From Candidatus Micrarchaeia archaeon (GTDB taxonomy: Archaea > Micrarchaeota > Micrarchaeia > Anstonellales > Bilamarchaeaceae): 64,000 nucleotides of DNA. The position numbers and the translations under genes are program-made. This document shows positions 6,763 through 64,000 of this stretch, piece after piece. The notes below the pieces were generated by a model. That model worked only from the letters and a program-made list of their open reading frames with translations, searched no databases and was not told the origin of the DNA. The stretch is from NCBI GenBank assembly GCA_041649555.1, contig JBAZMS010000001.1:119219-183218 (forward strand). The letters run 5' to 3'. How positions within the stretch are numbered: the stretch's first letter is position 1; each line of letters starts with the position of its first letter.

Positions 6763-6813
6763 CCAAACTTATAAAAAACTATATGTTTGGTTGATTGTAA
6801 TTTTTCCTCAATT

Positions 6814-7638: not shown

Positions 7639-7705
7639 TCCAGGGCTTTCGTTCTAACACTAAAACCCCGAACTTATAACGCATTCCATATATTTAAATA
7701 ATGTT

Positions 7706-7721
7706 GGTGATAATTATCACC
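7706..7721. promoter_or_regulatory. Perfect 16-bp palindrome GGTGATAATTATCACC, candidate operator
   Basis: It lies between an AT-rich TATA-like box (ATATATTTAAATAA, about 7689-7702) and the ATG of the TrmB-family gene at 7724. Confidence 0.4.
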
Positions 7722-7723
7722 AT

Positions 7724-10386: not shown

Positions 10387-12372
10387 ATGATTGATTCAAC
10401 ATTATTTGGTTTTATTTCAGGATTTTTAGTATTGCTTTATGCATTATTTCTTGCATTTAAGGTAAACAAGGCTCCAAACGGAGATATAAAAATGAATGAT
10501 ATTGCAAAAGCAATACAGGTAGGGGCAAATGCTTTTCTGAAAAGACAATATATGACAATTGTCCCAATAGTGATTATTCTTGCAGCAGTAATAGGCTATT
10601 TTATCGGATTGGATACTTCAATTTCCTTTGTTTTCGGAGTTATTCTTTCTGCACTTGCAGGCTATATCGGAATGCAGGTTTCAGTAAGGGCAAATGTCAG
10701 GGTTGCAGAAGGGGCAAAATCAGGACTTTCAAGAGCATTAGAACTTGCTTTTTCAGGAGGAGCAGTTACAGGAATGTCTCTTATAGGTCTTGGGCTTATG
10801 GGAGTTAGCTTTTTGTATTGGTATTTTGGAAGCCTGATTCCTTTAATCGGCTTTGGTTTTGGTGCATCGCTTATCTCTTTATTTGCAAGGGTTGGGGGAG
10901 GGATATACACCAAGGCAGCAGATGTTGGAGCTGACCTGGTTGGAAAAATTGAAAAAGGAATTCCAGAAGATGACCCAAGAAATCCAGCAGTAATTGCAGA
11001 TAATGTAGGGGATAATGTTGGAGACTGCGCAGGAATGGCAGCAGATGTTTTTGAATCTTTTGTTGTAACCATAATTGCAGCTATGATTATTGGTTCTTTT
11101 ACAAATAATTCCACTTTCATAGAACTTCCTTTATATATTGCATCAATTGGAGGGCTTTCAGGAATTATTGGTTCATTTTTTGTAAGGCTTGGAAAAGAAA
11201 AAAACATAATGGGTGCGTTTTATAAGGGAATTATTGCAGCCTCTATTGTAATGGCGATATCATCCTTTATTTATTTAAATTCATTATTTCCTTCTGACTA
11301 CTCACTTTTTATATCAGTGATGGTCGGAGTGGTTTTAACAGGGCTTATGTTTTTGGTAACTGAATATTATACCTCATATCAATATTCTCCGGTCAAACAG
11401 ATTGCAGAAAGCTCAAAAACAGGAGCAGGAACAAATCTAATTTCAGGTCTTGCAATTGGAATGCAGTCAACTGCGCTTCCATTAATCTTTGTAGTTTTAT
11501 CAATTGCAATCTCATATCATTTTGCCGGAATGTATGGAATCGCACTGGCAGCAGCAGCAATGCTTTCTTTGAGTGCAATTGTCATATCAGTCGATTCTTA
11601 TGGCCCGATTACAGATAATGCAGGAGGAATCGCAGAGATGTCTGGATTATCTTCAAAAGTAAGAACTATTACAGATGCTCTTGATGCAGTTGGAAATACA
11701 ACCAAGGCAACAACCAAAGGGTTTGCAATTGCAGGTGCAGCTCTTGGAGCGCTTGCATTGTTTGTTGCATTTGCAAATGATGCAGGGCTTGCAACAATTA
11801 ATCTTCTAAATCCAGCAGTAACTATCGGGCTTTTCATCGGAGCATTATTGCCGTTCCTTTTTTCAAGCTTTTTAATGACTGCAGTTGGAAAGGCGGCATT
11901 TGAAATAGTCGAGGAAGTAAGAAGACAATTTAAAACAATAAAAGGCCTTATGAGTGGAAAAGAAAAACCTGACTATGCAACATGTGTTGACATAAGCACA
12001 AAAAGTGCGCTAAGAGAACTTATCGTTCCAGGCCTTTTGGCAGTATTGACCCCATTGCTTATAGGTTATCTTCTTGGAGCAGAAGCATTGGCAGGCCTTT
12101 TGGCAGGAACAATTGCGTCCGGGTTTTTGCTTGCATTATTTATGTGCACTTCAGGTGCTGCATGGGATAATGGCAAAAAATATATTGAGCTTGGAAATTT
12201 TGGAGGCAAAGGCTCTGATGCGCACAAGGCGGCGATAGTAGGGGATACAGTTGGGGACCCGTTAAAAGATACTGCAGGGCCTGCATTAAATGCATTAATT
12301 AAGGTGGTAAATACAGTATCACTTGTATTTATTGGAGTAATTATGGCATATGGAATAACCCTTTTGGGTTAA
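10387..12372 (+). CDS. hppA: Membrane-bound H+/Na+-translocating pyrophosphatase
   Basis: Motifs GGGIYTKAADVGADLVGKIE, DPRNPAVIADNVGDNVGDCAGMAADVFES and GDTVGDPLKDTAGPALN. 661 aa, polytopic. Confidence 0.95.
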   Translation: MIDSTLFGFISGFLVLLYALFLAFKVNKAPNGDIKMNDIAKAIQVGANAFLKRQYMTIVPIVIILAAVIGYFIGLDTSISFVFGVILSALAGYIGMQVSVRANVRVAEGAKSGLSRALELAFSGGAVTGMSLIGLGLMGVSFLYWYFGSLIPLIGFGFGASLISLFARVGGGIYTKAADVGADLVGKIEKGIPEDDPRNPAVIADNVGDNVGDCAGMAADVFESFVVTIIAAMIIGSFTNNSTFIELPLYIASIGGLSGIIGSFFVRLGKEKNIMGAFYKGIIAASIVMAISSFIYLNSLFPSDYSLFISVMVGVVLTGLMFLVTEYYTSYQYSPVKQIAESSKTGAGTNLISGLAIGMQSTALPLIFVVLSIAISYHFAGMYGIALAAAAMLSLSAIVISVDSYGPITDNAGGIAEMSGLSSKVRTITDALDAVGNTTKATTKGFAIAGAALGALALFVAFANDAGLATINLLNPAVTIGLFIGALLPFLFSSFLMTAVGKAAFEIVEEVRRQFKTIKGLMSGKEKPDYATCVDISTKSALRELIVPGLLAVLTPLLIGYLLGAEALAGLLAGTIASGFLLALFMCTSGAAWDNGKKYIELGNFGGKGSDAHKAAIVGDTVGDPLKDTAGPALNALIKVVNTVSLVFIGVIMAYGITLLG

Positions 12373-50097: not shown

Positions 50098-50160
50098 AAA
50101 GAAATATTTGAATTAAAATTAATAAACTTGCCGTTCTTTTAATGATTCTGCAAATTCTTT

Positions 50161-50545
50161 AACCCAAGTCCAATACAAGATTATAAAAGGGCCATATCAA
50201 ACAATAGAAAATTATTCTCCTAATTTCTTTCAAGTTGTATTAGTCTTTTTGTTTTGGGGTGACCACTTAGACCTTTTAACCCAAGTCCAATACAAGATTA
50301 TAAAAGGGCCATATCAAACAATAGAAAGTTGTTATCCTAATTTCTTTCAAGTTGTATTAGTCTTTTTGTTTTGGGGTGACCACTTAGACCTTTTAACCCA
50401 AGTCCAATACAAGATTATAACAGGGCCATATCAAACAATAGAAAGTTGTTATCCTAATTTCTTTCAAGTTGTATTAGTCTTTTTGTTTTGGGGTGACCAC
50501 TTAGACCTTTTAACCCAAGTCCAATACAAGATTATAAAAGGGCTA
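50161..50545. repeat. Tandem direct repeat, 117-bp unit x 3.3 copies
   Basis: Unit starts (AACCCAAGTCCAATACAAG...) at 50161, 50278, 50395 and 50512, an exact 117-nt period. Copies 2 and 3 differ at one position (AAAAGGG vs AACAGGG). Copy 1 differs in an 8-nt patch. The fourth copy is truncated after 34 nt, next to the RNase P RNA 3' end. Confidence 0.95.
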
Positions 50546-50546
50546 G

Positions 50547-50758
50547 TGATGGGAAGCATAGTCTGCCTTCTGTGTGGTTAGGCAACATTCGACTAAGCGG
50601 CGCAAAGGCCTTGCATACCACAGGCAATTCAAAAGCCGTTTCATCCTCAGAGAGGTAATCGTTTCTGTTCTTTTGAATCCGCCCTTAAGGCGTTGCCTGC
50701 ATAAAGGTATGGGCAGAACTTCCTCAGAAGAACTCCGTGAGTTGCCTGCTTCCCATCA
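50547..50758 (-). ncRNA. rnpB: RNase P RNA, unusually compact (about 212 nt)
   Basis: On the minus strand, the P1 5' strand UGAUGGGAAGC pairs with GCUUCCCAUCA, and the P2 strand AGGCAAC pairs with GUUGCCU. A P3 hairpin is present. A CR-I-like GAGGAAGUUCUGCCCAUACC compares with bacterial GAGGAAAGUCCGGGCUCCAUAGG. A CR-V-like ACAGAAGGCAGACUAU-P1' compares with ACAGAACCCGGCUUAU-P1'. P4 forms as UCUGCC/GGCAGA. P5 forms as CAUACC/GGUAUG, with nested helices between its strands. Confidence 0.75.
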
Positions 50759-50870: not shown

Positions 50871-52235
50871 ATGCACATCTGCAATGAGGATATATTGGAT
50901 TTAATACAACAAGGAAAAACAAATGAACTAGTTAAATTAGGAAGCAGAGTAGTAAAACCCATGATATCATTATTATCACATTCAAGTATGAAAGTTAGAA
51001 ATGGATGTATCGAAGCACTAGCAGAAATAGCGAAAACAGATGAGACCACATTTCAAAGACTAATTGAGGAATTAAACACTCCACGCTTAAACGTTGAACA
51101 ATATATACATGTCAAAAGAGGTTGCATATATGCGTTGGGCCTGGTAGGTGATAAAAGAGCGGCAAAATCTTTGATAATATCTCTTTTACACGGTTCAGAT
51201 GATATTAGAAAAGCCTGTGCAGAAGCATTAGGTTCAATAGGAAATCAAAAAGCAGTGAGTGCATTATTAATACACGCATCGTCAAATCGCTATTTTGACA
51301 TCAGACAAGCATGTGTGATGGCATTAATACATATAGGGAAAAAAGATAGGCACAGTTCCTATGAATTAATTAATGAATTGAATACCAATAGTTCTCTTAG
51401 TATAAAATCTATCTGCGCACGAGTATTAGGGATGATAGGAGAACGCAGGGCAGTAGATGCATTAATAGAAGGATTAAAAAATTCAGATGAGAATGTCCGG
51501 ATATCATGTGAAAAATCTTTAATATTAATAGCAAAGTCTAATGAGAAGACCTTCCAGAGACTAATTAAAGAATTGAAAACCAATCGAAATCGTAAAATTA
51601 AAGAAACCTGTGCAGATGCGCTGGGAATAATAGGGGATAAAAGGGCCGTGGACGTTTTGATAGAATCACTGGATGATTTTTATCGTTTTAGTAGGGAAGC
51701 CGAAGTAACAGTGATAAATGCATTGGGTTTAATAGGGGATCCCAAAGCAGTTACGCCCTTAATAAGAATATTGAAAAGAGATATAAAGAAGACCTCACCG
51801 AACAGCCAGAAGAAAGCCAATAAAGCATTGGTAAACATAGCAAAATTGGATAAAGTTACTTTCTATCTATTAATTAGTGGATTGTTGCCAATAGGAAAAA
51901 ACAATACAGAAGATTGTATAGGAATATTAACGGAAAACACAGATGAAAAAGGATCATGTTTTATAAAAATAATCTGTGAAAGGAGTGAAGAATGTGCATT
52001 AGAAATAGGAATGGAAAAAACCTTGGCAACCATCAAAGAATACATAGGATTCATAAAAGATTATTATACCAAAGAAGAACTAAAAGAAATCCAAATCAGG
52101 TTATATTCCTTCTACAGAAAAACATTTGAAGAAGAATCTAGTTCAAGAATAAAAATGGATTTACCTAAACTAGAGATAAAACCACCAAAGAGAGGCCCTG
52201 AAATATGTGCCAAATTATTGAGGGTAGGATCATGA
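50871..52235 (+). CDS. HEAT-repeat (PBS-lyase type) paralogue A, 454 aa
   Basis: Has the family N-module ...DILDLIQQGKTNELVKLG, multiple ALGxIGDxRAVxxLI/DxxVRxxC repeats, and the family C-module ...GMEKTLATIKEYIGFIKDYYTKEELKEIQIRLYSFYRKTFE...MDLPKLEIKPPKRGPEICAKLLRVGS. Confidence 0.8.
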   Translation: MHICNEDILDLIQQGKTNELVKLGSRVVKPMISLLSHSSMKVRNGCIEALAEIAKTDETTFQRLIEELNTPRLNVEQYIHVKRGCIYALGLVGDKRAAKSLIISLLHGSDDIRKACAEALGSIGNQKAVSALLIHASSNRYFDIRQACVMALIHIGKKDRHSSYELINELNTNSSLSIKSICARVLGMIGERRAVDALIEGLKNSDENVRISCEKSLILIAKSNEKTFQRLIKELKTNRNRKIKETCADALGIIGDKRAVDVLIESLDDFYRFSREAEVTVINALGLIGDPKAVTPLIRILKRDIKKTSPNSQKKANKALVNIAKLDKVTFYLLISGLLPIGKNNTEDCIGILTENTDEKGSCFIKIICERSEECALEIGMEKTLATIKEYIGFIKDYYTKEELKEIQIRLYSFYRKTFEEESSSRIKMDLPKLEIKPPKRGPEICAKLLRVGS

Positions 52236-53296
52236 TTACAAAAGAAGAAGTATTAAAATTAATACAACAAGGAAAAACTGAAGAACTAGTTGCTCTAGGT
52301 CCAGAAGCATATGATACTCTTTTCAGGGGGCTTGCAAATGAATTTCCATCAAGAAGATCTACTTGTTGCAGGGCATTAGTAGAAATTGCCAAAAAAGACC
52401 AAGATGTTTTTGAAAGGTTAATGTCAGATACTTCAGGAAATTATAGTTATACCTCTGTACAACTTAGGATCAAAAAATGCCATCTGTGGATCTTAGGCGA
52501 AGTTGGCGACACTAGAGTAGTCCCATACCTTTTCTCTTTTCTGGACCGTTCGCCCCATGAGTTTGAGGAGAGTATCTCTATTGCACTGGCAAAAATAGCA
52601 AGAACAAACGAAGAAACCTTCCAACGCTTAATTAATGAAATCCTGCATATTAAAGACCGGAAGATAAAAGCTCAATGCAGTTGTATCAGGGCATTATGTT
52701 TATTGAAGGATTCCAGGACATCAGAAGTATTGATCAAGACATTTTCAAGTTCTTTTGATTCTGCTGTTCTAGGCTTATGTGAAAAAACATTGGCAGAAAT
52801 AGCAAAAACAGATGAAAATACTTTAGAACTCTTGATTCAGACATTAAAAAATAATTTAGATCCGAATGTTAAGTTTCACTGTGCAATGGCATTAGGAACC
52901 ACAAACAGAGCAGATTTAATCGATATATTAGTGACTATGTCATTTATAGACAAAGATCTAGATCTTAAGTTTGCATGCACAAGAGCTTTGGGAAATATAA
53001 AAGATCCAAGGGGTCTTGCTTTCAAGAAAGTTATCTATGACAAAGACAAAGATTATGCATTAAAGATGGGAATAGAAAAAACCAGAGCAACCATAAAAGA
53101 ATATCTAGAACTTATAAAAAATTATTATTCTAAAGAAAGGGTAGGTGCGATTAAAATTGAATTACATTCCTTTTTTAGAGAGGTATTTGAAAAGGCAACA
53201 GACTTGAAGCCATGTATGGATTTACCTGAACTAAAGATAAAACCACCAAAGAGAGGCCCTGAAATATGTGCCAGATTAATGACGGTAAGAGTATGA
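52232..53296 (+). CDS. HEAT-repeat paralogue B, 354 aa
   Basis: ATGA overlap with A. Starts MITKEEVLKLIQQGKTEELVALG and ends MDLPELKIKPPKRGPEICARLMTVRV. The start is set to MITK by analogy with paralogues D and F. Confidence 0.8.
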   Translation: MITKEEVLKLIQQGKTEELVALGPEAYDTLFRGLANEFPSRRSTCCRALVEIAKKDQDVFERLMSDTSGNYSYTSVQLRIKKCHLWILGEVGDTRVVPYLFSFLDRSPHEFEESISIALAKIARTNEETFQRLINEILHIKDRKIKAQCSCIRALCLLKDSRTSEVLIKTFSSSFDSAVLGLCEKTLAEIAKTDENTLELLIQTLKNNLDPNVKFHCAMALGTTNRADLIDILVTMSFIDKDLDLKFACTRALGNIKDPRGLAFKKVIYDKDKDYALKMGIEKTRATIKEYLELIKNYYSKERVGAIKIELHSFFREVFEKATDLKPCMDLPELKIKPPKRGPEICARLMTVRV

Positions 53297-54522
53297 TTAC
53301 AAAAAAAGAAGTATTAGAGTTAATACAACAAGGAAAAACTGAAGAATTGATTTCATTAGGACCTAAAATAGCAGAGCCTCTATTAGCCATATTAGAATAT
53401 TCAGATCTCCCTGAAATTCATATGATTGCAAGCGTATTGGCTGAACTGGCAAAAAAATATGAATGCATCTTTCAGCGACTAACCAAGGAGCTGAATTTCA
53501 AAAAATTCAAGAATAATTTAAATCTCAGGATAGGTTGTGCAGAAGCATTAGGAAAAACAGCATCCCCTGTAGCAGTCATTTTTCTTCTTGACAGCTTAGG
53601 ATGCGACCCAGACCCCAACGTCCGAATCTTATGTGCGAAAGCCTTAGGAGAGATAGGAGATCCAAGAGCAGTAGATGGATTAAAGAAAAGTATCTATGAT
53701 TATGAGTATGTTAATAGGGCGTCCGTTTCCGCGTTGAAAAGGATAGGAACCCAGAAGGCACTTAATTCATTAGCCTGGAAATTAAGGTCTGAAAATATCC
53801 TATTCGATATCTGTGAAGAGGCTCTTATAACCACCGGTGGTTTGAAGGTATTACAAGCATTAATACATAGCATGGGCATCATGCATAATGGAAATCCATC
53901 TCATCGTGACAGCTGTGTAAAAATCTTTACAGAATTGGGCAAAAAAGATGAAATTTTTTTTCAGGGTTTGATCCATGAATTTGAAAATAATCAGAATTGG
54001 GTCGTTAGAGAAATATGTGCAAGAGCATTTGAACTTATAAAAAACCCAAAAGCAGTAAAAGTATTAATAGAAGGATTAAAGGATAATCGTGTGGAGGTCA
54101 AATTAGCGTGCATCTCTGCATTAGGTTCAATCGGAGGTCCTGGCGTAATTGATTTGTTAATAATCCATTTAGCAGACAGCTCCCTTGGTTTTAAATGCGC
54201 AAAAGCACTGGAAAATATAAAAGATCCAAGAGGTCTGCACTTCAAAAAAATAATTTATGACCGCGCAGAGAGTTATGAATCCGTATGTTATATATCAAAA
54301 ATAGGAATAGAAAAAACCCGGGTAATAATTCTTGAATATCTAGAAATGATAAAAGACCATTATCCGAAAGAGAAACTAGCTAAAATCAAAATCAACTTGT
54401 TCTCATTTTACAGAAGAGCGTTCAACTCTACTTCTAGACCACCAATGGAGTTACCTATCTTTGCCGTTAAACCTAAAAAGGTCGGTCCTAGGATATGTGC
54501 TAGATTAACGGTTGTAATATGA
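53293..54522 (+). CDS. HEAT-repeat paralogue C, 409 aa
   Basis: ATGA overlap with B. Starts MITKKEVLELIQQGKTEELISLG, has HEAT repeats, and ends in a more divergent tail MELPIFAVKPKKVGPRICARLTVVI. Confidence 0.8.
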   Translation: MITKKEVLELIQQGKTEELISLGPKIAEPLLAILEYSDLPEIHMIASVLAELAKKYECIFQRLTKELNFKKFKNNLNLRIGCAEALGKTASPVAVIFLLDSLGCDPDPNVRILCAKALGEIGDPRAVDGLKKSIYDYEYVNRASVSALKRIGTQKALNSLAWKLRSENILFDICEEALITTGGLKVLQALIHSMGIMHNGNPSHRDSCVKIFTELGKKDEIFFQGLIHEFENNQNWVVREICARAFELIKNPKAVKVLIEGLKDNRVEVKLACISALGSIGGPGVIDLLIIHLADSSLGFKCAKALENIKDPRGLHFKKIIYDRAESYESVCYISKIGIEKTRVIILEYLEMIKDHYPKEKLAKIKINLFSFYRRAFNSTSRPPMELPIFAVKPKKVGPRICARLTVVI

Positions 54523-55349
54523 TTACAAAAAAAGAAGTATTAGAGTTAATACAACAAGGAAAAACAAATGAATTAGTTAAATTAGGAAGCAGAGCAGTAA
54601 AACCCATGATATCATTATTATCACATTCAAGTATAAAAGTTAGAAATGGATGTATCGAAGCACTAGCAGAAATAGCGAAAACAGATGAAAATACTCTCCA
54701 GAGACTAATTCAAGAATTAAAAACTAATAAAAAATGTAAAACTAGGATAGGTTGTGCAGATGTATTAGGTTTTATACGGGATTCAAGAGTAGCAGAACCG
54801 TTAATAAAGGAATTAAAAACTAGTCGAGATTGGCTCGTTGGACGAAGTTGTGCAATTTCGCTAAGTCGGATAATAGACCCAAAAGCAGTAAAAGTATTAA
54901 TAGAAGGATTAAAGGATGAGGATTCAGATGTTAGAAAACCGTGCGCAGCTGCATTAGGTATAATTGGGGATATAACGGCAGTAGACTTTCTAATCTTAGG
55001 ATTAACGGATAATAATGTTAATCATCCTTTTGCACATGCATTAGAAAATATAAACGATCCAAGAGGTCTTGCTTTCAAGAAAGTTATCTATGACAAAGAC
55101 AAGGATTATGCATTAAAGATAGGAATAGAAAAAACCAGAGCAACCATAAAAGAATATCTAGAACTTATAAAAAATCATTATTCTAAAGAAAGGATAGGTG
55201 AAATTAAAGTTGAGTTATATATCTTTTACAGAAAAGTATTTGAAAAGGCAACAGACTTGAAGCCATGTATGAAGTTACCTGAACTAAAGATAAAACCACC
55301 AAAGAGAGGCCCTGAAATATGTGCCAGATTAATGACGGTAAGGGTATGA
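54519..55349 (+). CDS. HEAT-repeat paralogue D, 276 aa
   Basis: ATGA overlap with C. Starts MITKKEVLELIQQGKTNELVKLG and ends MKLPELKIKPPKRGPEICARLMTVRV. Confidence 0.8.
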   Translation: MITKKEVLELIQQGKTNELVKLGSRAVKPMISLLSHSSIKVRNGCIEALAEIAKTDENTLQRLIQELKTNKKCKTRIGCADVLGFIRDSRVAEPLIKELKTSRDWLVGRSCAISLSRIIDPKAVKVLIEGLKDEDSDVRKPCAAALGIIGDITAVDFLILGLTDNNVNHPFAHALENINDPRGLAFKKVIYDKDKDYALKIGIEKTRATIKEYLELIKNHYSKERIGEIKVELYIFYRKVFEKATDLKPCMKLPELKIKPPKRGPEICARLMTVRV

Positions 55350-55519
55350 TTACAAAAGAAGAAGTATTAAAATTAATACAACAAGGAAAAACTGAAGAAT
55401 TGATTTCATTATGACCTAAAATAGAGTTGCCCCAGTTAAGCATCAAAAAACCAAAGCATCCATATAAGATATATTATCCTTCAAAAAATTCGCATTTAGC
55501 TCAAACATTAATAAACTAA
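55346..55519 (+). pseudogene. Collapsed HEAT-family paralogue: N-module fused to a degenerate C-tail, interrupted by an in-frame TGA
   Basis: ATGA overlap with D. Reads MITKEEVLKLIQQGKTEELISL, then TGA (55412-55414; paralogue C has GGA Gly at this position), then in frame PKIELPQLSIKKPKHPYKIYYPSK..., which resembles the family tail ELPELKIKPPKRGPEI. Confidence 0.7.
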
Positions 55520-55563
55520 CACTTTAAAAATCTTTTTATATTAATTATATTAGGTGTAATTTT

Positions 55564-56640
55564 ATGAATTCAGCCAATAACAATTGTGTAATGCGAGAAT
55601 TAAATCCGCCTACTTTGGCAAATGGAAGTTATAGACGGACGAGGGGAGGAATTTTTATTCCAGAAAGGAATGTTCTGTTAGACACCCTGAAAAAAACAAT
55701 AGTTCCACCAGATAAAAAGCTAAATTATATCCCTTATGGTGATGAACTTAATTCGCTAGAAATAGCACAGAAAACAGGACAGGCTGTTCTTTTTGCAGGT
55801 CCAACAGGAGTTGGAAAAAGTATGCTTGCCCTGAAATATGCTCAAAATACTGGCCTACCCTTTCTTTATTCCACATGCGATCCGGATAAGACGCAGGGCC
55901 AATTAATGGGAAAGCCAAATTTATTATTTTCTGTAGTTGAATTGGATGGAAAGCCCTTTGTAATCAGCAATCAGGTTTTTATGCCCTCAAATATTTCTAT
56001 TGCTGGTCTTGCTGGAGAAAAGGTTATAATTTTTATAGACGAACTCCATAAACTAAGAAAGGATGTTGATGTATTATTCCACCCTCTTTTACAGGAGAGA
56101 ATAGTGAACTTGTCTGATCACTTAGGTCCAGGAGAGATTTATAATTTACATCCCGAATCTCTCATAATCTTTTCTTTGAATCCTTATTACGGCGACAGTG
56201 GAATTGAAAAGGTCGGCCCTGCGATGCGACAAAGAGTCAAGACACTCTATTTTCCGATGATTACTGATGAAAATAAAATTTTTGAAATTGTAAAGGCAAA
56301 TGTTGATGGTTATGAAAATTTGGCAAAGGATAAACAGGAGACATTTAAACGGATAGTTCTTATGAGCATGGCTATTGCTAGAATTTATCTTGAATACAAA
56401 AAACAGGGAACTACGAATCAGGATGATTTAACATTAAAAAATGAGTTAAAAAATAGTCTTCCTTTAATTAATGAAGCGCCTTCACCACGATTACTTGTTA
56501 ATGTTGCCAAGTGTATAGTAGCAGGCCAGAATCCTCGCGATGCATTGATAGAAGGACTTTTTAATGCAATAACCAATGACTTTGGTTTGACTACAAATGG
56601 ATTTTTAACCCAGGCAATGTCATGGTATAATATCAGATGA
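55564..56640 (+). CDS. MoxR-class AAA+ ATPase, CbbQ/NorQ/GvpN-like (AAA_5)
   Basis: Walker A FAGPTGVGKSM, Walker B VIIFIDELH, sensor-1 IFSLNP, Arg-finger region GPAMRQRV, sensor-2 SPRLL. 358 aa. Own TATA-like (CTTTTTATATTA) and AGGTG upstream. Confidence 0.85.
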   Translation: MNSANNNCVMRELNPPTLANGSYRRTRGGIFIPERNVLLDTLKKTIVPPDKKLNYIPYGDELNSLEIAQKTGQAVLFAGPTGVGKSMLALKYAQNTGLPFLYSTCDPDKTQGQLMGKPNLLFSVVELDGKPFVISNQVFMPSNISIAGLAGEKVIIFIDELHKLRKDVDVLFHPLLQERIVNLSDHLGPGEIYNLHPESLIIFSLNPYYGDSGIEKVGPAMRQRVKTLYFPMITDENKIFEIVKANVDGYENLAKDKQETFKRIVLMSMAIARIYLEYKKQGTTNQDDLTLKNELKNSLPLINEAPSPRLLVNVAKCIVAGQNPRDALIEGLFNAITNDFGLTTNGFLTQAMSWYNIR

Positions 56641-56652
56641 TGGTTGTCTTCA

Positions 56653-59283
56653 ATGTCCAAATTAAAGGAAAAACTAACTGGAAAAATAGTTCCTTTTAAA
56701 CCTGTTAAACCTAAAAATGATCCTCTTCTCGAGGAGTTTGATAAAGTAAGATTATGTATGGATGCAGCAGTATCTAGATTTGGAGAATTAATTTTTGAGG
56801 CCAAAGAAGAAGAAAAAAAGAAGGAAATGAAAGAAAACTTTCCTGTTTTAAAGAAATTAATCAATTCTCTTTTATCAGGAGACAAAGAATCACAAGACAG
56901 GTTGCTGTTTTTTGCCCATTGCATGGTCGAACTGAATTCCTCCGGCCATTATATCTCTAGGGATTATCTGATTGAAAATGCACTAACTATTCTAAGTCAC
57001 AGTGCGTGGAAGGTAAGCCAATTGCAATATTGCCTCTCTGAATTTCAGAGCGATATAACCAGTTATTTTTTTATGACATATTTTCTCCCTAAAATTGGTG
57101 AAAGGGTTTATTGGAATACCTTTGTCTCTGAATTGAATAATTACGAAGAGGATTATGTCTATAAATGTTTGGCCGAAGATCTTTTAGCAGAGTATCTTAT
57201 ACATTTTAATGAAACTGTAATGCTGGCAGAGGAAGCAGTTTATAAATATGGATTAGTGCGATACCCTCAGTTAATTTTTGGAAAAGATATGCCTATTGAA
57301 ATAGGAAAAGAAGATAGTTTTCACACAAATTCCAGCGGCAAAATAGTAATCCCGCCATATGTTAATACTTTTCAAAGCAAGGAGGAAAATTCACTAGTAT
57401 ATCTAATCCTTTTTCATCATGAGATGGGGCACCATCTTTTCAGAACCTTTGATGTGAATCTGGACCCCAGGATTTTCGATTATCAGGCTTTCAGAGTTAG
57501 ATATCTCAGGCATACCACGCATAAGGGCCAGCTTGAAATTACTGTTGAAAGAGAAGGAACGGAAATAAAAGTAAATTCATTTGCAAAACTACTCTACCTT
57601 GTCAAATATCCCATATTACTACATTTTCTTCACAATATTGTTGATGACGGCAGGATAGATGCCAACAATATCGAGCGCTTTTCCGGGATAGCTGAAGACT
57701 ACAGGCAAATTGTGGAAAAACATTTTGAAAAAAGATGCAAGCTTGAACATTCTGATCTGGGAACTTTTCTTGAGGCCATGCTCCAGTACGCAATTGTTGG
57801 AAAGACAAGAAACGAGGTTCCGGCCGGTCTGAAAGCAAAGTTTAACAAGGCAAGAAAGATAATGAATGAGATGGATTTTGGTCCTGAAACTGATGGAACA
57901 GATTCAATGAATGTTGCAATAAAACTTTATAATCTTGTATTAGAGGATTTTGAGCAGTTGGTAAAGAATCTTTCAGAAAGAGAACTACCAGAATCGATGA
58001 TGAATTCTTCTACTGACTCGGGCAAAGCTCCAAACCTTATTATGAAAGATCCTCCTTGCAAGAAACAAAAAAGGAGGCCGGGGGTAAATCCGTTCGATTT
58101 GATCAATAATGATTCAGAACCCGGGGATAATAATGGGGAGGATGTTCCTTTGGAACCTACCTCCGAACCAAACAAAAAGAAAAATCCAGAAAATAGCAGT
58201 GGTGAAGAAGGCGAAGAGGAAAACAAACCCGGAAAAAAAAGCGATAAAAAACCAGAAGAAAATGATGATGAACCAAAAGCAGAAAATGGCAGTGGTGAAG
58301 AAGGCGAAAAGGAAAAAAAACCAGAAAAAACAGGAGACAATAATCCTGCAGGGGCAAATCCGTATGGGAATCTTAAAACAGGAGAGCAAGGTGACGCAAA
58401 TAGAAATGATCGAAACACTCCCACAATTTTCTATTATGATGGTTGGGACGGATTCAAGCAAGTATTTGAAGAACACAGGGTAGAGCAATTGCATGCAGAC
58501 GGCAAACTCCTTACATACGATCCTGCAGAAGAGGAAAAAATAAGGAGAACATTCAGGAAATATGCCCCAAAGACAGGAGTTCTGGTTAGAGGAACTGAAG
58601 ATGGAGACATTGACCCGGAATTACTATCTCAATATTTTCTCGATCTGAGGGCAGGAAAACTCGAGGACATGAATTTTTATCAGAGAGTATTATATGAGCA
58701 GAGGGATGTTGCAACAATGGTTCTTGTAGATTTAAGCGGAAGTGCCCTAATTGTAAAACCGCAGATACTTGATTCCTGCGCAGTACTCGGAGTGGCAAGC
58801 GATACCCTCCATGATCCGTTGCTTATTGCAGGATTCAGCGGAGATCTTGGCGATGAGAAATTTATTGTTATGAAGGGCATTCATGAAAAAGACATCACTT
58901 CCAGCGAATACAGCTCTAATACTCCATTAGGGGGTCCATTAAGGCATTGTAGTTATTTGATGGGAAATGTCTATGAATTAAAATGCAAGGGATTTAAACA
59001 GCTTTTTGTGATAACTGACGGGGCTGCCAATGTTGGAAAAAATCCAGTAGAAGATGCGAAAAAGGCAGTTGAAGAGGCTTGGAAAAAGTACAGGATCAAT
59101 GTTATGGCATTCGGGATATTAAATCAAGATGGTCCAGTATCTTATAGCGAGATGGAAAAATACCTTGAATCTGTATTTGGGGCTGGAAATTATTTTATAA
59201 TAACTGATAAAGATGTTGACAACAAATTTTTGCATCATTACTTCGAGAGATATTACCGGAAACAGGTAAATAAAGTGAGGTAA
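56653..59283 (+). CDS. CbbO/NorD-like von Willebrand factor A protein with an HExxH-containing N-domain and an acidic repeat linker
   Basis: NorD/CbbO-like FYYDGWD motif. DLRAGKLEDMNFYQRVLYEQRDVATMVLVDLSGS contains a MIDAS DxSxS, and ...FVITDGAANVG follows. HHEMGHH lies at 57415-57435. A 31-aa E/K/G-rich repeat starts at 58189 and 58282. ATG at 56653; a TTG at 56644 is also possible. Confidence 0.8.
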   Translation: MSKLKEKLTGKIVPFKPVKPKNDPLLEEFDKVRLCMDAAVSRFGELIFEAKEEEKKKEMKENFPVLKKLINSLLSGDKESQDRLLFFAHCMVELNSSGHYISRDYLIENALTILSHSAWKVSQLQYCLSEFQSDITSYFFMTYFLPKIGERVYWNTFVSELNNYEEDYVYKCLAEDLLAEYLIHFNETVMLAEEAVYKYGLVRYPQLIFGKDMPIEIGKEDSFHTNSSGKIVIPPYVNTFQSKEENSLVYLILFHHEMGHHLFRTFDVNLDPRIFDYQAFRVRYLRHTTHKGQLEITVEREGTEIKVNSFAKLLYLVKYPILLHFLHNIVDDGRIDANNIERFSGIAEDYRQIVEKHFEKRCKLEHSDLGTFLEAMLQYAIVGKTRNEVPAGLKAKFNKARKIMNEMDFGPETDGTDSMNVAIKLYNLVLEDFEQLVKNLSERELPESMMNSSTDSGKAPNLIMKDPPCKKQKRRPGVNPFDLINNDSEPGDNNGEDVPLEPTSEPNKKKNPENSSGEEGEEENKPGKKSDKKPEENDDEPKAENGSGEEGEKEKKPEKTGDNNPAGANPYGNLKTGEQGDANRNDRNTPTIFYYDGWDGFKQVFEEHRVEQLHADGKLLTYDPAEEEKIRRTFRKYAPKTGVLVRGTEDGDIDPELLSQYFLDLRAGKLEDMNFYQRVLYEQRDVATMVLVDLSGSALIVKPQILDSCAVLGVASDTLHDPLLIAGFSGDLGDEKFIVMKGIHEKDITSSEYSSNTPLGGPLRHCSYLMGNVYELKCKGFKQLFVITDGAANVGKNPVEDAKKAVEEAWKKYRINVMAFGILNQDGPVSYSEMEKYLESVFGAGNYFIITDKDVDNKFLHHYFERYYRKQVNKVR

Positions 59284-59344
59284 TGCAATGGTGAGCTTTT
59301 ATGATATCTAATATTGGATTCATTTTCAGACTTAGGGGTTGAAT

Positions 59345-60514
59345 ATGACCACAGAAATATCAAAATTAATGGAACTTGGGAAAAAAGAAGAATTAGTTAA
59401 ACTAGGTCCTGAAGCAGTAGAATCTATCATACCCCGGTTATCCAGTTCGTATTTACATCTCAAAGAGTATCGCATAGAAGCATTGGCAGAAATAGCAAAA
59501 ACAGATGAAGGTGGTTTCCAGAGACTAATTAAAGAATTAGTAACTAATGAAAATTGGAGGGTTAAAGCAGGTTGTGCAGAAGCATTAGGTCTAATAGGAG
59601 ATCTAAGAGCAGTAGGAGCATTAATAGAAGGATTAAAAGATAAAGATTTAGATGTTAGAGAAGCCTACATGAAAGCCTTAGTAGAAATAGCAAAAACAGA
59701 TGAAGGTGGTTTCCAAAAACTAATAATTAAATTAGGAATTGGAGTGGTAACTGATTTAATAAAGGAGCTAAAATATTATCATGAGTCTGCAATTAAAGAA
59801 TATATCATACAAACATTAGCCGAAATAGCAAAAACAGATGAAAAAACCTTCCAGATACTACTTAAAGAATTAGAAACTAATGAAAGTTGGTGGATTAAAA
59901 TAGATTGTGCAAAAGCACTAGGTCTAATAGGAGATCCAAGAGCAGTAGGAACATTAATAGAAGGATTAAAAGATAAAGATTCAGATGTTAGAAAAGCCTG
60001 CATGAAAGCCTTAGTAGAAATAGCAAAAACAGATGAAAATACTTTAGAACTCTTGATTCAGACATTAAAAAATACTTTAGGTCTGAATGTTAAGTTTCAC
60101 TGTGCAAAAGCATTAGGGCAGATAGGAGATCCAAGAGCAGTAGGAGTATTAATAGAAGTATTAAAGGATGAAGATTCAGATGTTAGTGAATCCTGCGCAA
60201 AAGCATTAGAAAATATAAACGATCCAAGAGGTCTGCACTTCAAAAAAATAATTTATAATAAAAGTGAAGATTATGCTCTAGAACTAGGAATAGAAAAAAC
60301 TAGAGCAACCATAAAAGAATATCTAGAACTTATAAAAAATCATTATTCTAAAGAAAGAATAGGTGAAATTAAAGTTGAGTTATATATCTTTTACAGAAAA
60401 GTATTTGAAAAGGCAACAGACTTGAAGCCATGTATGGATTTACCTAAACTAGAGATAAAACCACTAAAGAGAGGCCCTGAAATATATGCCAAATTAATGG
60501 GGATAGGATTATGA
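59345..60514 (+). CDS. HEAT-repeat paralogue E, 389 aa
   Basis: N-module variant MTTEISKLMELGKKEELVKLG. Four near-identical ALxEIAKTDE..FQ.LIKEL..NE.W..K..CA.ALGLIGD.RAVG.LIEGLKDKD.DVR units. Family C-module ending MDLPKLEIKPLKRGPEIYAKLMGIGL. Confidence 0.8.
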   Translation: MTTEISKLMELGKKEELVKLGPEAVESIIPRLSSSYLHLKEYRIEALAEIAKTDEGGFQRLIKELVTNENWRVKAGCAEALGLIGDLRAVGALIEGLKDKDLDVREAYMKALVEIAKTDEGGFQKLIIKLGIGVVTDLIKELKYYHESAIKEYIIQTLAEIAKTDEKTFQILLKELETNESWWIKIDCAKALGLIGDPRAVGTLIEGLKDKDSDVRKACMKALVEIAKTDENTLELLIQTLKNTLGLNVKFHCAKALGQIGDPRAVGVLIEVLKDEDSDVSESCAKALENINDPRGLHFKKIIYNKSEDYALELGIEKTRATIKEYLELIKNHYSKERIGEIKVELYIFYRKVFEKATDLKPCMDLPKLEIKPLKRGPEIYAKLMGIGL

Positions 60515-61569
60515 TTACAAAAGAAGTATTAGAGTTAATACAACAAGGAAAAACAAATGAACTAGTTAAATTAGGAAGCATAGTAGTAGAGCCCATGATA
60601 TTATTATTATCAGATTCAGGTATAGAAGTCAGGAACGGATGTATTGAGGCACTGGCAGAAATAGCAAAAACAGATGAAAATACTTTAAAACTCTTGATTC
60701 AGACATTAAAAAATAATTTAGATCCGAATGTTAAGTTTCACTGTGCAAAAGCATTAGGGCAGATAGAGGATCCAAAAGCAATAAGCGCATTAATTTTTAT
60801 GATGGAATATGGTGGATGCAATCTTTCTGAAGTTTGTTTGGACATATTAGTTAAACTTGCAAGAAGAAATAAGGATGTTGTTGATCAATTAATCATTGAA
60901 TTTGAAAATCCCCCCCCCATAATCATAAGAGGCTATGGGTGTTGCGCAGAAGCCTTGGGCGAAATAGGAGATAAAAAAGCAACAGCTGTTTTATTTAATG
61001 GATTGCGTAATTATTTTATGATAAGAGAATTATGTGCTAATGCCTTGGCAAAAATAGCAGAAAGAGACGAAGAAACATTTGAATTATTAGTTGAAGGATT
61101 AAATGACTCTACTCTTTTTGTTAGAAAGGCCTGCGCAGGAGCTTTGGGCAAAATAAAAGATAAAAGAGCAGTAGATCCCCTGATAAGAGGCTTGCAAGAT
61201 CCTGAACCTGAATTTAAACAAGCCTGTGCTAATGCACTCGAGAACATAAATGATCAAAGAGGCGTACATTTCAAGAGAATTATTCATGATAGATTTTATG
61301 ATATCATTCCTGGTTCTGCGCAGCATTATGCATTAAAAATAGGAATGCAAAAAACCCTTGAGATTATTAGGGAATATTTAGAATTAATAAAAAAAGATTA
61401 TCCAAAAGGAGAAATAAAAGAGATTCGGGTAAGTTTGTTTGATTTTTACAGAAAGGCATTTGAAAAAAGTTCTGCGCACAGAGTTAGGTTGGAATTACCT
61501 GAATTAAAGATAAAACCACCAAAGAGAGGTCCTGAAATATGTGCCAGATTAATGAGGATAGGATTATGA
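60511..61569 (+). CDS. HEAT-repeat paralogue F, 352 aa
   Basis: ATGA overlap with E. Starts MITKEVLELIQQGKTNELVKLG and ends LELPELKIKPPKRGPEICARLMRIGL. Confidence 0.8.
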   Translation: MITKEVLELIQQGKTNELVKLGSIVVEPMILLLSDSGIEVRNGCIEALAEIAKTDENTLKLLIQTLKNNLDPNVKFHCAKALGQIEDPKAISALIFMMEYGGCNLSEVCLDILVKLARRNKDVVDQLIIEFENPPPIIIRGYGCCAEALGEIGDKKATAVLFNGLRNYFMIRELCANALAKIAERDEETFELLVEGLNDSTLFVRKACAGALGKIKDKRAVDPLIRGLQDPEPEFKQACANALENINDQRGVHFKRIIHDRFYDIIPGSAQHYALKIGMQKTLEIIREYLELIKKDYPKGEIKEIRVSLFDFYRKAFEKSSAHRVRLELPELKIKPPKRGPEICARLMRIGL

Positions 61570-62777
61570 TTACAAAAGAAGAAGTACTAAGGCTAGTAAA
61601 ACAAGGAAAAACAAATGAATTAGTTAAATTAGGAAGCATAGTAGTAGATATACTAATTGAAAGTTTAAACTCTAACATTGATACCAAACATAGTATAACA
61701 GCCTTAGTAGAAATCGCAAAAACAGATGAAAATACTTTTCAAAGGCTAATTAAGGAATTGGAGAATAATACCTCTTGGAAGAGTAGAAGATACATTGCCC
61801 AATCATTAGGTTTACTAAAAGATAAAAGAGCAGTAAAAGCATTAGTAACAAGATTAGAAGACGAAAATGAAAATTTCCTTGTTAGAGAATCATGTGCAGA
61901 ATCCCTAGGAAAAATTAGGGATCCAAAGGCAGTAGATCCCCTAATAGAACTATTAAAAATCCACATGGGGGACCTTATGGAATCCTGCACAGAAGCATTG
62001 GCAGAAATAGCAAAAACAAATAGAAATACTTTTCGAAGAATAACTACTGAATTATTAAATAGTGATTCTGAAAATGTCAAGAAAGCCTGTGTAATGGCAC
62101 TAGACCTCATAAATGATTTAAGAGCAGTAGATTATTTGATAAAAGGATTAAAAGATAAAGATTCGGATGCTAGCCCAAGTATTATACATTTACTGGCCAA
62201 AATCGCAAGGAAAGATGACAGTACTTTCCAAAAACTCATAAAAGAATTATTGACCAATAATCTTCAATCTGTTAGGTTTTGCTGTGCAGTAGCATTAAAA
62301 TGTGTGGGGGATAGAATAGTAGAAAAAAATATAGAAAAAAGATTATTTGAGCTTTCGAAAAAAAATTCTTACACGAAAGGAGAATTTGCAAAAATAAAAC
62401 TTGAGATATATAAAATTTACTTTGAAATAACTGGGCACAAAAGTTTTCTAAGAGTAATGAATGAATATTTGTCTATAATACGGGATAAGACTTCAAAGAA
62501 AGAGTTTGCAAAAACAAAACTTGAGCTGTATAGGGCTCATGTAACTATAGTGGGATCAGAAAAAACATTAGAAACCATCAAAGGATATCTAGAACTTATA
62601 AAAAACGATTATTCCAAAGAAGAACTAGATAAAATTAAATTAAACTTATATTCTTTTTATAGAATGGTGTTTGAGTGTGAATCAGCCATAAGAGGAAAAA
62701 TGGATTTACCTAAACTAGAGATGAGACCACCAAAGAGAGGTCCTATAATACATGCTCAATTGAGGGTTGCAACATGA
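61566..62777 (+). CDS. HEAT-repeat paralogue G, 403 aa, with a triplicated C-terminal helical unit
   Basis: ATGA overlap with F. Starts MITKEEVLRLVKQGKTNELVKLG. Has three successive copies of the ...EFAKIKLEIY.IY... unit. Ends MDLPKLEMRPPKRGPIIHAQLRVAT. Confidence 0.8.
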   Translation: MITKEEVLRLVKQGKTNELVKLGSIVVDILIESLNSNIDTKHSITALVEIAKTDENTFQRLIKELENNTSWKSRRYIAQSLGLLKDKRAVKALVTRLEDENENFLVRESCAESLGKIRDPKAVDPLIELLKIHMGDLMESCTEALAEIAKTNRNTFRRITTELLNSDSENVKKACVMALDLINDLRAVDYLIKGLKDKDSDASPSIIHLLAKIARKDDSTFQKLIKELLTNNLQSVRFCCAVALKCVGDRIVEKNIEKRLFELSKKNSYTKGEFAKIKLEIYKIYFEITGHKSFLRVMNEYLSIIRDKTSKKEFAKTKLELYRAHVTIVGSEKTLETIKGYLELIKNDYSKEELDKIKLNLYSFYRMVFECESAIRGKMDLPKLEMRPPKRGPIIHAQLRVAT

Positions 62778-64000
62778 TAAACTCGGAAGAAACGTGGGGC
62801 GTATTAGAATTAATACGCAAAGGAAAAACCAAGAAACTAGTTAAATTAGGAAGAGAGGCAGCAGATATTTTAATAGCAGAATTGCAGAATCCCCATTTTG
62901 TTCATAAACAAACTTGTATAAACTCCTTAGTAGAAATAGCAAAATCCGATGAAGAAACTTTTCAGAGACTAATTGAAGAATTGGAAAATAGTAAAAACTT
63001 GAAAATTAAAGCAGGTTGTGCAAAAGCATTGGGTTTAACAGGGAATAGAAGGGCAACCACTGCATTAATAGAAGAGTTATGCAAAAATGATGGATCATCG
63101 TATCAATATTCTGATGTTAAAATAGCCTGCGCAGAAGCATTAGGCATGATGAGAGATAAACAAGCAATACCCTATTTGGTAAAGGAACTAAGGAATATGA
63201 ACCGTTCAGTTGGATTTGCCTGTATAAAATCCTTGGGAGAAATTGGAGGTCTGGCTGGGGCAGAAGCAATAATACAAAGATTAGAAGAGATAATAAATAT
63301 TTCAGGAATATGGGGAGATTTAGAAACAATTTGTAAAGAAACGCTAAGCAACATGGCTAAAAAAAATAAAGCCGTCCAGCAGTTTTTAATATATAAATTT
63401 GAGAATTCTGGTAATAACACAGTGAAAAATGTTTGCTTACAGGCGTTATGTCATATTGCTGATCCAAAACTTGCAGAATTTTATATAAAGAATTTAACTG
63501 GTCCTGCAGGTCCTGCTGTATATTGTGCAGAAGCATTAGGAAAAATAAAAGATAACAGAGCAATACCTTATTTATTAAATGGGCTAGAAAAAGAATATCA
63601 CGGTCTTAGAAGAGCCTGCGCAGAAGCATTAAAGAAAATAGGTGATCCAATAGCCGTAGATTATTTAATTAAACGATTGACAGACCTCCATCCTTCTGTT
63701 CGAAAAGCTTGTTCTGAAGCATTAAAGAAAATAGGTGATCCAAGAGGACTCTATTTTGAGAGAGTTATCTATGATGATGCAGGTGCTTTAAAGATCGGCA
63801 TGGATAACACCCTGAAAATTATTAAAGAATATCTTGATTTCATAGCAGATGAATATCCCGAGGAAAGAACAAGACAAATTAGACTAGGTTTATTTTTATA
63901 TTATAGAAGAATATTTGAAAAAGAATCCAGTTCAAGAATAAAAATGGAATTGCCTGAACTAAAAATAAGACCACCAGTGAAGGGCCCTATACTATATACT
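62774..64000 (+). CDS. HEAT-repeat paralogue H (3' end outside the window)
   Basis: ATGA overlap with G, and the frame is open for all 409 codons to the window edge. It is not in the ORF track because no stop is present. Reads MINSEETWGVLELIRKGKTKKLVKLG..., CAEALGKIKDNRAIPYL, CSEALKKIGDPRGLYFERVIYDD, ...MELPELKIRPPVKGPILYT. Confidence 0.8.
   Translation, partial: MINSEETWGVLELIRKGKTKKLVKLGREAADILIAELQNPHFVHKQTCINSLVEIAKSDEETFQRLIEELENSKNLKIKAGCAKALGLTGNRRATTALIEELCKNDGSSYQYSDVKIACAEALGMMRDKQAIPYLVKELRNMNRSVGFACIKSLGEIGGLAGAEAIIQRLEEIINISGIWGDLETICKETLSNMAKKNKAVQQFLIYKFENSGNNTVKNVCLQALCHIADPKLAEFYIKNLTGPAGPAVYCAEALGKIKDNRAIPYLLNGLEKEYHGLRRACAEALKKIGDPIAVDYLIKRLTDLHPSVRKACSEALKKIGDPRGLYFERVIYDDAGALKIGMDNTLKIIKEYLDFIADEYPEERTRQIRLGLFLYYRRIFEKESSSRIKMELPELKIRPPVKGPILYT

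Follow-up and report, generated by a model that had tools for sequence, protein, structure and literature searches.

MoxR-class AAA+ ATPases paired with adaptors that carry a VWA domain (von Willebrand factor type A) are widespread, and clients are known for a handful of these pairs only (cNOR, Rubisco, CobN and a few others). The adaptors NorD and CobT show the domain order N-domain, disordered linker, finger and VWA domain (PMC13036017; bioRxiv 10.64898/2026.07.21.739949), with the linker being essential in NorD, the NorD finger inserting into the pore of NorQ and the C-terminal end of NorD docking onto NorQ (PMC13036017). [quoted passage not shown] Here we describe a pair of this kind, an ATPase of 358 and an adaptor of 876 amino acids, encoded in a 64,000-nucleotide stretch of contig JBAZMS010000001.1 (positions 119,219 to 183,218; hereafter the window) from a Candidatus Micrarchaeia archaeon. 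Their genes lie inside an array of genes for HEAT-repeat proteins that share one C-terminal tail, and the N-domain of the adaptor has an intact HExxH motif. We propose, with about an even chance of being right, that these genes define a three-component AAA+/VWA remodelling system, which is built on the plan of NorQ-NorD, CbbQ-CbbO and CobS-CobT and acts on tail-tagged solenoid clients. Within the searchable literature library, no paper describing this cluster was found.

The pair and its tail-tagged solenoid arrays

The ATPase displays Walker A (GPTGVGKS), Walker B (IFIDELH), sensor 1 (FSLNP), arginine finger (RQR) and sensor 2 (SPRLLV) motifs, all of which align to NorQ; a complete set had been listed for this protein in an earlier model-made annotation of the DNA (hereafter the sequence-only reading). 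Its best relatives in the PDB are NorQ (9qh4_A, E = 5e-12; 9qhd_A, 6e-11) and CbbQ (5c3c_A, 2e-10; 6l1q_C, 3e-10). The Pfam family AAA_5 (PF07728) is matched with 3e-11 and 43.9 bits against a cut-off of 22, the score for CbbQ_C (PF08406) falls exactly on its cut-off (20.6 bits for both) with a weak alignment over the NorQ lid, and the match to GvpN (1.5e-8) stays well under the equivalog cut-off. As judged from its sequence, the protein is a MoxR AAA+ ATPase of the CbbQ/GvpN/NorQ (CGN) type.

The adaptor gene follows on the same strand after a gap of 12 nt and could start at TTG 56644 (879 amino acids) or at ATG 56653 (876 amino acids), the latter being the database gene call. The hallmarks on which the sequence-only reading had based its comparison with NorD and CbbO are all present, at offsets of 1-12 nt: FYYDGWD at 58429-58449, RDVATMVLVDLSGS at 58702-58743, in which DLSGS occupies 58729-58743 (given there as 58728-58742), and ITDG at 59011-59022. 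An exhaustive HMMER search for relatives returned 1137 proteins, 26 of them below 1e-30. Conservation was read from a clade alignment of 27 full-length relatives at 20-42% identity. A word-indexed search recovered one relative only, and returned nothing with either the N-domain alignment or the client tail; given the yield of the exhaustive search, we count these nulls as a limit of the tool and not as absence.

When the PDB was searched with a two-sequence profile, the C-terminal 280 residues of the adaptor matched the VWA region of NorD (9qh6_G, 1.2e-9). An AlphaFold2 (AF2) model of the adaptor was built on the 27 relatives, with a predicted local distance difference test (pLDDT) score of 78 overall and about 90 in the N-domain. 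The full model, compared with the PDB by Foldseek, likewise retrieved the NorD VWA domain as its top match (9qh6_G, 1.5e-15, TM(target) 0.68), followed by the MIDAS domain of human MDN1 (8ql1_C, 1.2e-5). The MIDAS residues D693, S695, S697 and D789 are conserved at 90% or more in the 27-sequence alignment, and T757 reaches this level only among the 10 closest relatives; the DxSxS, T and D elements are thus all present, and the model shows a VWA fold of the NorD type. Furthermore, the C-terminus of the adaptor (...YFERYYRKQVNKVR) resembles that of NorD (...IYRQL), and the stretch ahead of the first VWA strand aligns to the NorD finger. Searches with the whole adaptor and with its halves against Pfam and NCBIfam yielded nothing for the N-domain and one sub-threshold VWA match only. 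Both members of the pair are accordingly NorQ/NorD-like, the ATPase in its best PDB match and the VWA domain in both sequence and fold.

The N-domain and the VWA domain are separated by a charged linker, rich in E, N, K, P and G, much as the sequence-only reading had described it. Its residues 484-587 have a pLDDT below 50 and are predicted to be disordered. The start of the linker (residues 446-483, 57988-58100) is not of low complexity and contains a conserved LPES..S.T..P...KKxKRRPG..P..FL segment, for which the model shows, at moderate confidence, a pair of short strands (452-454 and 461-463) and which is not matched by the hidden Markov model (HMM) of the client tail described below. By analogy with NorD, whose linker reportedly covers the NorD N-domain (PMC13036017), this segment could pack on the N-domain. 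The corresponding linkers of the relatives are also charged and span 53-193 residues. Within the linker of the window, the sequence-only reading had reported a tandem duplication of 93 nt. Two head-to-tail copies are indeed found at a spacing of 93 nt (58182-58258 and 58275-58351), but the duplication is partial, each copy being 77 nt long and 81% identical to the other; in the frame originally given, 62 of 93 nt are identical and clear likeness is limited to the first ~16 residues. Tandem Repeats Finder did not score the duplication, and its absence from the nearest full-length relative (P0002) marks it as an expansion specific to the lineage.

Around the pair, and on the same strand, lie no fewer than eight genes for HEAT-repeat proteins, of which four are upstream (50871-55349) and four downstream (from 59339 to past 64000); the majority of them are linked by ATGA stop/start overlaps. 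Besides the pair, the cluster at 50871-64000 contains HEAT genes only; no norCB, Rubisco genes or cobN adjoin it, and the same holds for the related loci. The HEAT proteins of the window all begin with a MITKEEVLELIQQGKT-like sequence, and at their C-termini they have in common a module of about 95 residues that ends in ...LPELKIKPPKRGPEICARLMTVRV. The elements of this module are a helix, an acidic/hydrophobic patch, the sequences K-P-P-K-R-G and φ-[F/Y/C]-R, and an end of basic character, the Cys of the tails in the window being replaced by Tyr or Phe in other loci. Solenoid arrays flank the pair in 11 independent loci, mostly from Micrarchaeota (L001, L015, L016, L017, L018, L019, L024, L029, L030, L031 and L114), and the module, in the form …KPPKRG…φ[F/Y]R…RVRNG, was found in 10 of these 11. 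The order of AAA_5 gene, adaptor gene and several solenoid genes recurs where the adaptors are only 25-42% identical. The ATPase-then-adaptor order is kept in most of the related loci fetched, with the distant relatives L112 and L113 having no recognisable ATPase gene. Metagenomes were scanned with a 10-sequence alignment, the 27-sequence one being too diverse for this purpose; L001 and L004 belong to Micrarchaeota.

An HMM of the tail, built from six loci, always matched at the extreme C-terminus of the proteins, namely in 7-9 consecutive genes of the independent loci L029 and L030 and in the upstream gene of L004 and L031. In locus L017 (4291-6797, minus strand; the same genes occur in L025) three ankyrin-repeat proteins, encoded divergently from the ATPase gene, replace the HEAT proteins and carry the same tail (...KPPRRD..WR..RVRNG). 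This implies that it is the tail, and not the type of repeat, that is linked to the pair. The variants of the tail follow lineages (KPPKRG..Y/F-R..RVRNG, ..KVFRQVRRAVA and ..LGLKRFPA..). In L114, the locus of the distant relative P0050, the solenoid genes at 177-2428 and 6105-8094 bear a different tag (…D-S-L-G-L-K-R-F-P-A…); tag and adaptor lineage appear to vary together. As the pair sits inside an array sharing one C-terminal tail, the HEAT proteins are probably its clients. These conserved tail-tagged arrays, a context absent from the sequence-only reading, provide the strongest clue to function.

Two further observations concern the surroundings of the arrays. Directly downstream of the adaptor gene in L017 lies a gene for a RimK-type ATP-grasp ligase (10555-11610). 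RimK enzymes add residues to the C-termini of proteins, and the position of this gene may be accidental or may hint that the tails are modified. The cluster also adjoins ribosomal-protein operons in L016 (9253-14689), L029 (8119-10580) and L030 (10348-10653), and a PNO1/KRR1-type KH protein is encoded between two HEAT genes of L017. Together with the similarity of the MIDAS fold to Midasin, this gene adjacency brings to mind a possible link to ribosome biogenesis.

The proteins of the arrays range from 226 to 985 amino acids, with conserved ends and a more variable middle. The paralogues in the window (50871-55349 and 59339-62777) are mosaic: the last ~50 residues encoded by the genes at 54519 and 59339 and the first ~45 residues encoded by those at 50871 and 54519 are nearly identical, and the middles of the paralogues are 31-56% identical, a pattern that points to gene conversion or to a recent duplication inside the array. 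Multi-copy proteins of such variable length would also suit a conflict or host-interaction system, in which the arrays are sensors or effectors that are activated, licensed or handed over by the ATPase and adaptor, either as a defence of the MoxR-vWA ternary type or as symbiont effectors with a C-terminal targeting signal. Micrarchaeota are host-dependent and some secretion systems use basic C-terminal signals, both of which would fit this alternative. Conflict systems of the MoxR-vWA kind that include HEAT/TPR repeats and peptidases have likewise been described (PMC7159879). However, PADLOC returned generic Walker-A (IetA, 2.6e-4) and HEAT-ARM matches only and no membership of a defence system. 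The vWA-MoxR ternary systems carry an effector on the vWA protein and have a VMAP partner, and no VMAP was seen here, nor did any conserved gene of a third type accompany the pair and the solenoid arrays. The cluster has no secretion or membrane component, and the loci lie among housekeeping genes (ribosomal proteins, SRP54, thermosome). We therefore consider a role in conflict or host interaction improbable.

The HExxH-containing N-domain of the adaptor

The sequence-only reading had noted an HExxH motif in the N-terminal 450 residues of the adaptor, which it did not count among the features of CbbO and NorD and found reminiscent of DUF2201-type proteins. The motif is present as HEMGH within LILFHHEMGHHLF at 57403-57441 (57415-57435 in that reading). 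The sole invariant columns of the 27-relative alignment are N246, H256, E257, H260, N328, D332, R334 and D336, which form the motifs HExGHH and LHNxxDDxRxD; such invariance across 27 relatives places the HExxH beyond chance.

In the AF2 model the core of the N-domain consists of three short strands, the HExxH helix, a β-meander insert, the DDxRxD helix and a helical bundle, in this order. The HExxH lies on helix 243-262, which follows strands 215-217, 223-225 and 231-233, and the acidic motif lies on helix 320-342 beyond the insert, 72 residues after H260 (pLDDT ~90). D331, D332 and D336 are candidates for a third metal ligand, with D332 and D336 being invariant and position 331 acidic, their placement being taken from the predicted model. 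A sheet, a metal-binding helix and a later helix with an acidic ligand constitute the general zincin layout, and the modelled topology of the N-domain is zincin-like. Its 72-residue spacing and D(i)/D(i+4) pattern recall, at the level of an Escherichia coli alignment, the E-x-x-A-D helix of the M48 peptidases. The crystal structure of the CobT N-domain is described as a three-stranded sheet with helices after it and as peptidase-M48C-like (2026 preprint).

When the 150 best superfamily matches were searched with a profile of the N-domain, 96 of them proved to contain it (E-values scaled to the full library of 1.8 billion proteins). The motif region could be aligned in 85 superfamily members, and H-E-x-x-H is intact in 54 of these; the notion that it is foreign to CbbO and NorD is therefore not upheld; the motif rather appears to be ancestral in the NorD-like family and not an oddity. 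The acidic residue at 331 and R334 are essentially universal across 94 superfamily members. In light of this, the view of the N-domains of MoxR-VWA adaptors as non-conserved and unrelated (PMC9976466) looks too strong. In Pfam scans covering 27+10+10+40 proteins the only family touching the N-domain was CobT (PF06213), which reached E = 8.9e-4 with the NorD-like relative P0062 and was matched by 3 of 40 members (best 1.4e-5), below the gathering score. PF13203 and PF09967 remained unmatched in all members scanned (E up to 0.1-10). An SprT or DUF2201 identity of the N-domain was tried and found no support in any scan, the VWA domain being clearly of the NorD type.

Remote matches also emerged among viruses. 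The phage 'cobalamin biosynthesis protein' family phrog_5298 of PHROG matches 3 of 20 N-domains, and viral CobT-like/VWFA proteins align with the adaptor model over ~800 columns (Foldseek, BFVD library), the structural matches coming from the haloarchaeal tailed viruses HCTV-2 and HVTV-1, many actinophages and other phages. A tblastn search against phage genomes gave no match to the adaptor.

The intact H-E-x-x-H and the downstream acidic helix make it most likely that the N-domain binds a metal ion. Furthermore, since the clade keeps the catalytic Glu, which many relatives have lost, a metal-dependent and possibly proteolytic step acting on the tail is favoured; the replacement of this Glu by Gln is never seen in the 27-member clade. 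We put forward proteolysis by the HExxH site as a tentative suggestion. A stronger version, in which the ancestral zincin domain is still catalytic and the system is an ATP-driven, MIDAS-guided processing protease that reads the C-terminal tag and cleaves or matures the HEAT and ankyrin proteins, is in our estimate unlikely.

Several observations weigh against the proposed system or its proteolytic step. The N-domain has no significant match to peptidase families in Pfam, a profile search of the PDB gave noise only, and hhalign of the N-domain profile with a 4-sequence alignment of E. coli M48 proteins (BepA, LoiP, YcaL and HtpX) returned a probability of 5% in what is a low-powered test. The motif is degenerate in 31 of the 85 superfamily members, 20 of which have Gln for the catalytic Glu and others such forms as HEAGY, RQAAY or LESGY, so that the domain is able to work without catalysis. 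In CobT and NorD the N-domain is a binding module (PMC13036017; bioRxiv 10.64898/2026.07.21.739949), and the conservation of the client tails to their final residue is explained by recognition no less well than by removal. Gene adjacency is also compatible with the solenoid proteins being cofactors instead of clients. In favour of the system, the tails of the clients have a basic net charge (+2 to +5) and the linker of the window adaptor an acidic one (-10); against it, acidity as a conserved feature of the linker had to be rejected, the net charge among the relatives ranging from -14 to +22. The 50 top Foldseek matches of the full-length model in the PDB are all VWA domains, and hence bring no information on the fold of the N-domain.

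Several of these points would equally be explained if the N-domain were a pseudo-peptidase scaffold, that is a zincin-derived binding module that docks on the small subdomain of the ATPase and on the client, with the HEAT and ankyrin proteins being remodelled or assembled uncleaved and the HExxH being retained for structural or metal-stabilising reasons. The N-domains of CobT and NorD bind just these two partners with no catalysis reported (PMC13036017; bioRxiv 10.64898/2026.07.21.739949). The degenerate motifs and the tails conserved up to the C-terminus also agree with a scaffold, as does the fact that the most conserved positions of the superfamily, R334 and acidic 331, differ from the classical ligands. 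On the other hand, in a clade with no more than 20-42% identity H, E and H do not vary, and neither do N246, D332 and D336. This is the pattern that a functional site, be it metal-binding or catalytic, should show, and we regard a pure scaffold as doubtful.

A further alternative is a metal-insertion chaperone, whose HExxH/Asp site holds a metal that ATP-driven twisting delivers into the solenoid clients. An HExxH with an acidic residue is a generic metal site, and the characterised relatives do perform metal insertion or the maturation of metal centres (NorQD with iron into cNOR, CobST with cobalt into corrinoid). HEAT_PBS-type repeats occur in some metalloproteins, such as deoxyhypusine hydroxylase. 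Yet no His/Cys/Asp cluster was seen to be conserved across the client paralogues of different loci, and NorD and CobT have themselves lost the HExxH or diverged from it, so that metal insertion, where it is known, does not require the motif. Metal delivery thus seems quite unlikely to us.

Layout of the window

The window has a GC content of ~34%, and the aIF5B that it encodes shares 86% identity with its counterpart in a Candidatus Micrarchaeota metagenome-assembled genome. Upstream of the cluster, on the minus strand, lies a gene for archaeal RNase P RNA (50548-50757), whose 3' end is adjoined by a tandem repeat (50158-50543) with a period of 117 nt and 3.3 copies that are 98% identical; the open reading frame at 50249-50581 is a translation of this repeat.

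Table 1. Features of the cluster and of the two proteins of the pair (positions in the window)
Feature	Position	Strand	Evidence or remarks
HEAT-repeat paralogue 1, 454 aa	50871..52235	+	Pfam HEAT_2 1e-34; tail ...MDLPKLEIKPPKRGPEICAKLLRVGS; tail HMM 1e-21
HEAT-repeat paralogue 2, 354 aa from MITKEE	52232..53296	+	ATGA overlap with preceding stop; tail HMM 2e-23
HEAT-repeat paralogue 3, 409 aa	53293..54522	+	tail HMM 2e-16
HEAT-repeat paralogue 4, 276 aa	54519..55349	+	Pfam HEAT_2 2e-33; tail HMM 3e-24
NorQ/CbbQ/GvpN-type MoxR-class AAA+ ATPase, 358 aa	55564..56640	+	AAA_5; PDB NorQ/CbbQ matches; motifs
Adaptor, 876 aa: N-terminal helical region, zincin-like domain, disordered linker, finger, VWA	56653..59283	+	
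Zincin-like N-domain core, aa 205-445	57265..57987	+	AF2 pLDDT ~90; superfamily HMM matches
HEMGH (H256, E257, H260)	57418..57432	+	invariant in 27-sequence family
D331-D332-G-R334-I-D336 motif on downstream helix, candidate third metal ligand	57643..57660	+	
Charged linker, aa 446-590	57988..58422	+	E/N/K/P/G-rich, net charge -10; residues 484-587 pLDDT <50
Linker duplication, two head-to-tail copies	58182..58351	+	repeat search
FYYDGWD β-hairpin; Y-x-E/G-W-D hallmark common with NorD (YPEWD)	58423..58494	+	profile alignment; AF2 model
VWA domain with MIDAS	58510..59280	+	D693/S695/S697 (58729-58743), T757 (58921-58923), D789 (59017-59019)
Finger-like segment	58576..58707	+	aligned to PdNorD 403-448; R646, G647, G651, D654, E656 nearly invariant
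HEAT-repeat paralogue 5, 391 aa from TTG (ATG at 59345)	59339..60514	+	Pfam HEAT_2 1e-34; tail HMM 8e-22
HEAT-repeat paralogue 6, 352 aa	60511..61569	+	open reading frame; shared tail; tail HMM
HEAT-repeat paralogue 7, 403 aa	61566..62777	+	Pfam HEAT_2 1e-25; tail HMM 3e-21
HEAT-repeat paralogue 8, continues past window end, tail only starting (…ELPELKIRPPVKGPILY)	62774..64000	+	tail HMM 3e-12

A proposed mechanism and the described relatives

From the observed homology of both proteins, the conservation of motifs, the domain order, the conserved synteny and the shared client tail, we infer the architecture of the complex, the recognition of the clients and the binding of a metal. In the remodelling system that we propose, the NorQ-like ATPase would form a hexamer, by analogy with the NorQD and CobST structures, with the VWA finger of the adaptor in its pore, the C-terminus of the adaptor docked on the ring and the N-domain seated on the small subdomain of the ATPase. 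The flexible linker would be stretched or twisted during ATP turnover. The clients would be the HEAT-repeat proteins that are encoded with the pair and coupled in translation, replaced in one lineage by ankyrin-repeat proteins; they would be recognised by their shared C-terminal module, and this module might be held by the MIDAS face, the N-domain or both. The position of the CobN solenoid helices beside the CobT MIDAS provides a precedent. Our favoured guess is that the N-domain would trim or cleave the tails of the clients as the adaptor is twisted by ATP hydrolysis.

The presence of one N-domain with a zincin-type motif in a large share of the NorD-like adaptors points to a common origin and provides a testable metal or catalytic site. 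The genome context offers a new class of clients, solenoid proteins with a short conserved C-terminal tag, whose recognition is experimentally accessible. With at least 13 kb, the cluster is estimated to take up ~1% or more of a genome like the complete Micrarchaeota chromosome of 1.57 Mb; its recurrence across the phylum implies that it probably matters for the cell biology of DPANN archaea, which is mostly uncharacterised. If the system were indeed a processing protease, the N-domains of the NorD, CbbO and CobT adaptors would descend from an active metallopeptidase, and the clients could represent the host-interaction or regulatory repertoire of the symbiont. The pair and its tail-tagged arrays are thus worth experimental follow-up.

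Among the described systems, NorQ/NorD, the chaperone for FeB insertion into cNOR (PDB 9qh4-9qhg), gives the best matches in both sequence and fold. Like the locus described here, it has a MoxR ATPase and, next in order, an adaptor made up of an N-domain, a disordered linker, a finger and, at the C-terminus, a VWA/MIDAS domain; both also have the Y-x-E/G-W-D motif, the RG..G..D.EL finger and the ..YR.. tail at the C-terminus. Unlike NorD (~640 amino acids), the adaptor of the window has 876 residues and a larger N-domain with an intact HExxH, and no nor genes are adjacent to it. The NorD-like relative P0062, which matches the solved NorD chain strongly over the VWA domain and without a significant alignment over the N-domain, reads ..LAHN.. 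at the position of the HExxH. The presumed clients differ as well, being soluble solenoid proteins here and a membrane oxidoreductase in the case of NorQ/NorD.

The aerobic cobaltochelatase CobS/CobT/CobN is similar in its domain order, in the M48C-like CobT_N and in having an armadillo-like solenoid at the client surface of CobT, but no cobN is present here and the sequence similarity to CobT is marginal. The Rubisco activase CbbQ/CbbO resembles the pair in combining a CGN-type MoxR ATPase with a large adaptor that ends in a VWA/MIDAS domain, and differs in its context, no Rubisco genes being adjacent here. Midasin/Rea1 (MDN1) has AAA_5-type modules, a long, charged (D/E-rich) unstructured region right before the MIDAS and a loop of the MIDAS domain inserting into the ring of AAA modules (PMC13036017); in contrast to the pair, it is a single giant polypeptide with six AAA modules and no zincin-like domain, and its clients have ubiquitin-like (UBL) domains. 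A precedent for coupling a protease to a VWA domain is offered by the CLCA proteins, in which a single chain joins an HExxH metalloprotease-type domain to a VWA/MIDAS domain (PMC3650047); they are secreted and eukaryotic and have no AAA+ partner, and our analysis detected no homology to them. The DUF2201_N/DUF2201 proteins encoded beside MoxR ATPases correspond to the pair in their general scheme only, an HExxH domain combined with a VWA-like domain. The pair hence belongs to the same kind as NorQD, CbbQO and CobST, and what is new is the conserved triad that it forms with tail-tagged HEAT/ankyrin arrays, along with the intact zincin-type motif of its adaptor.

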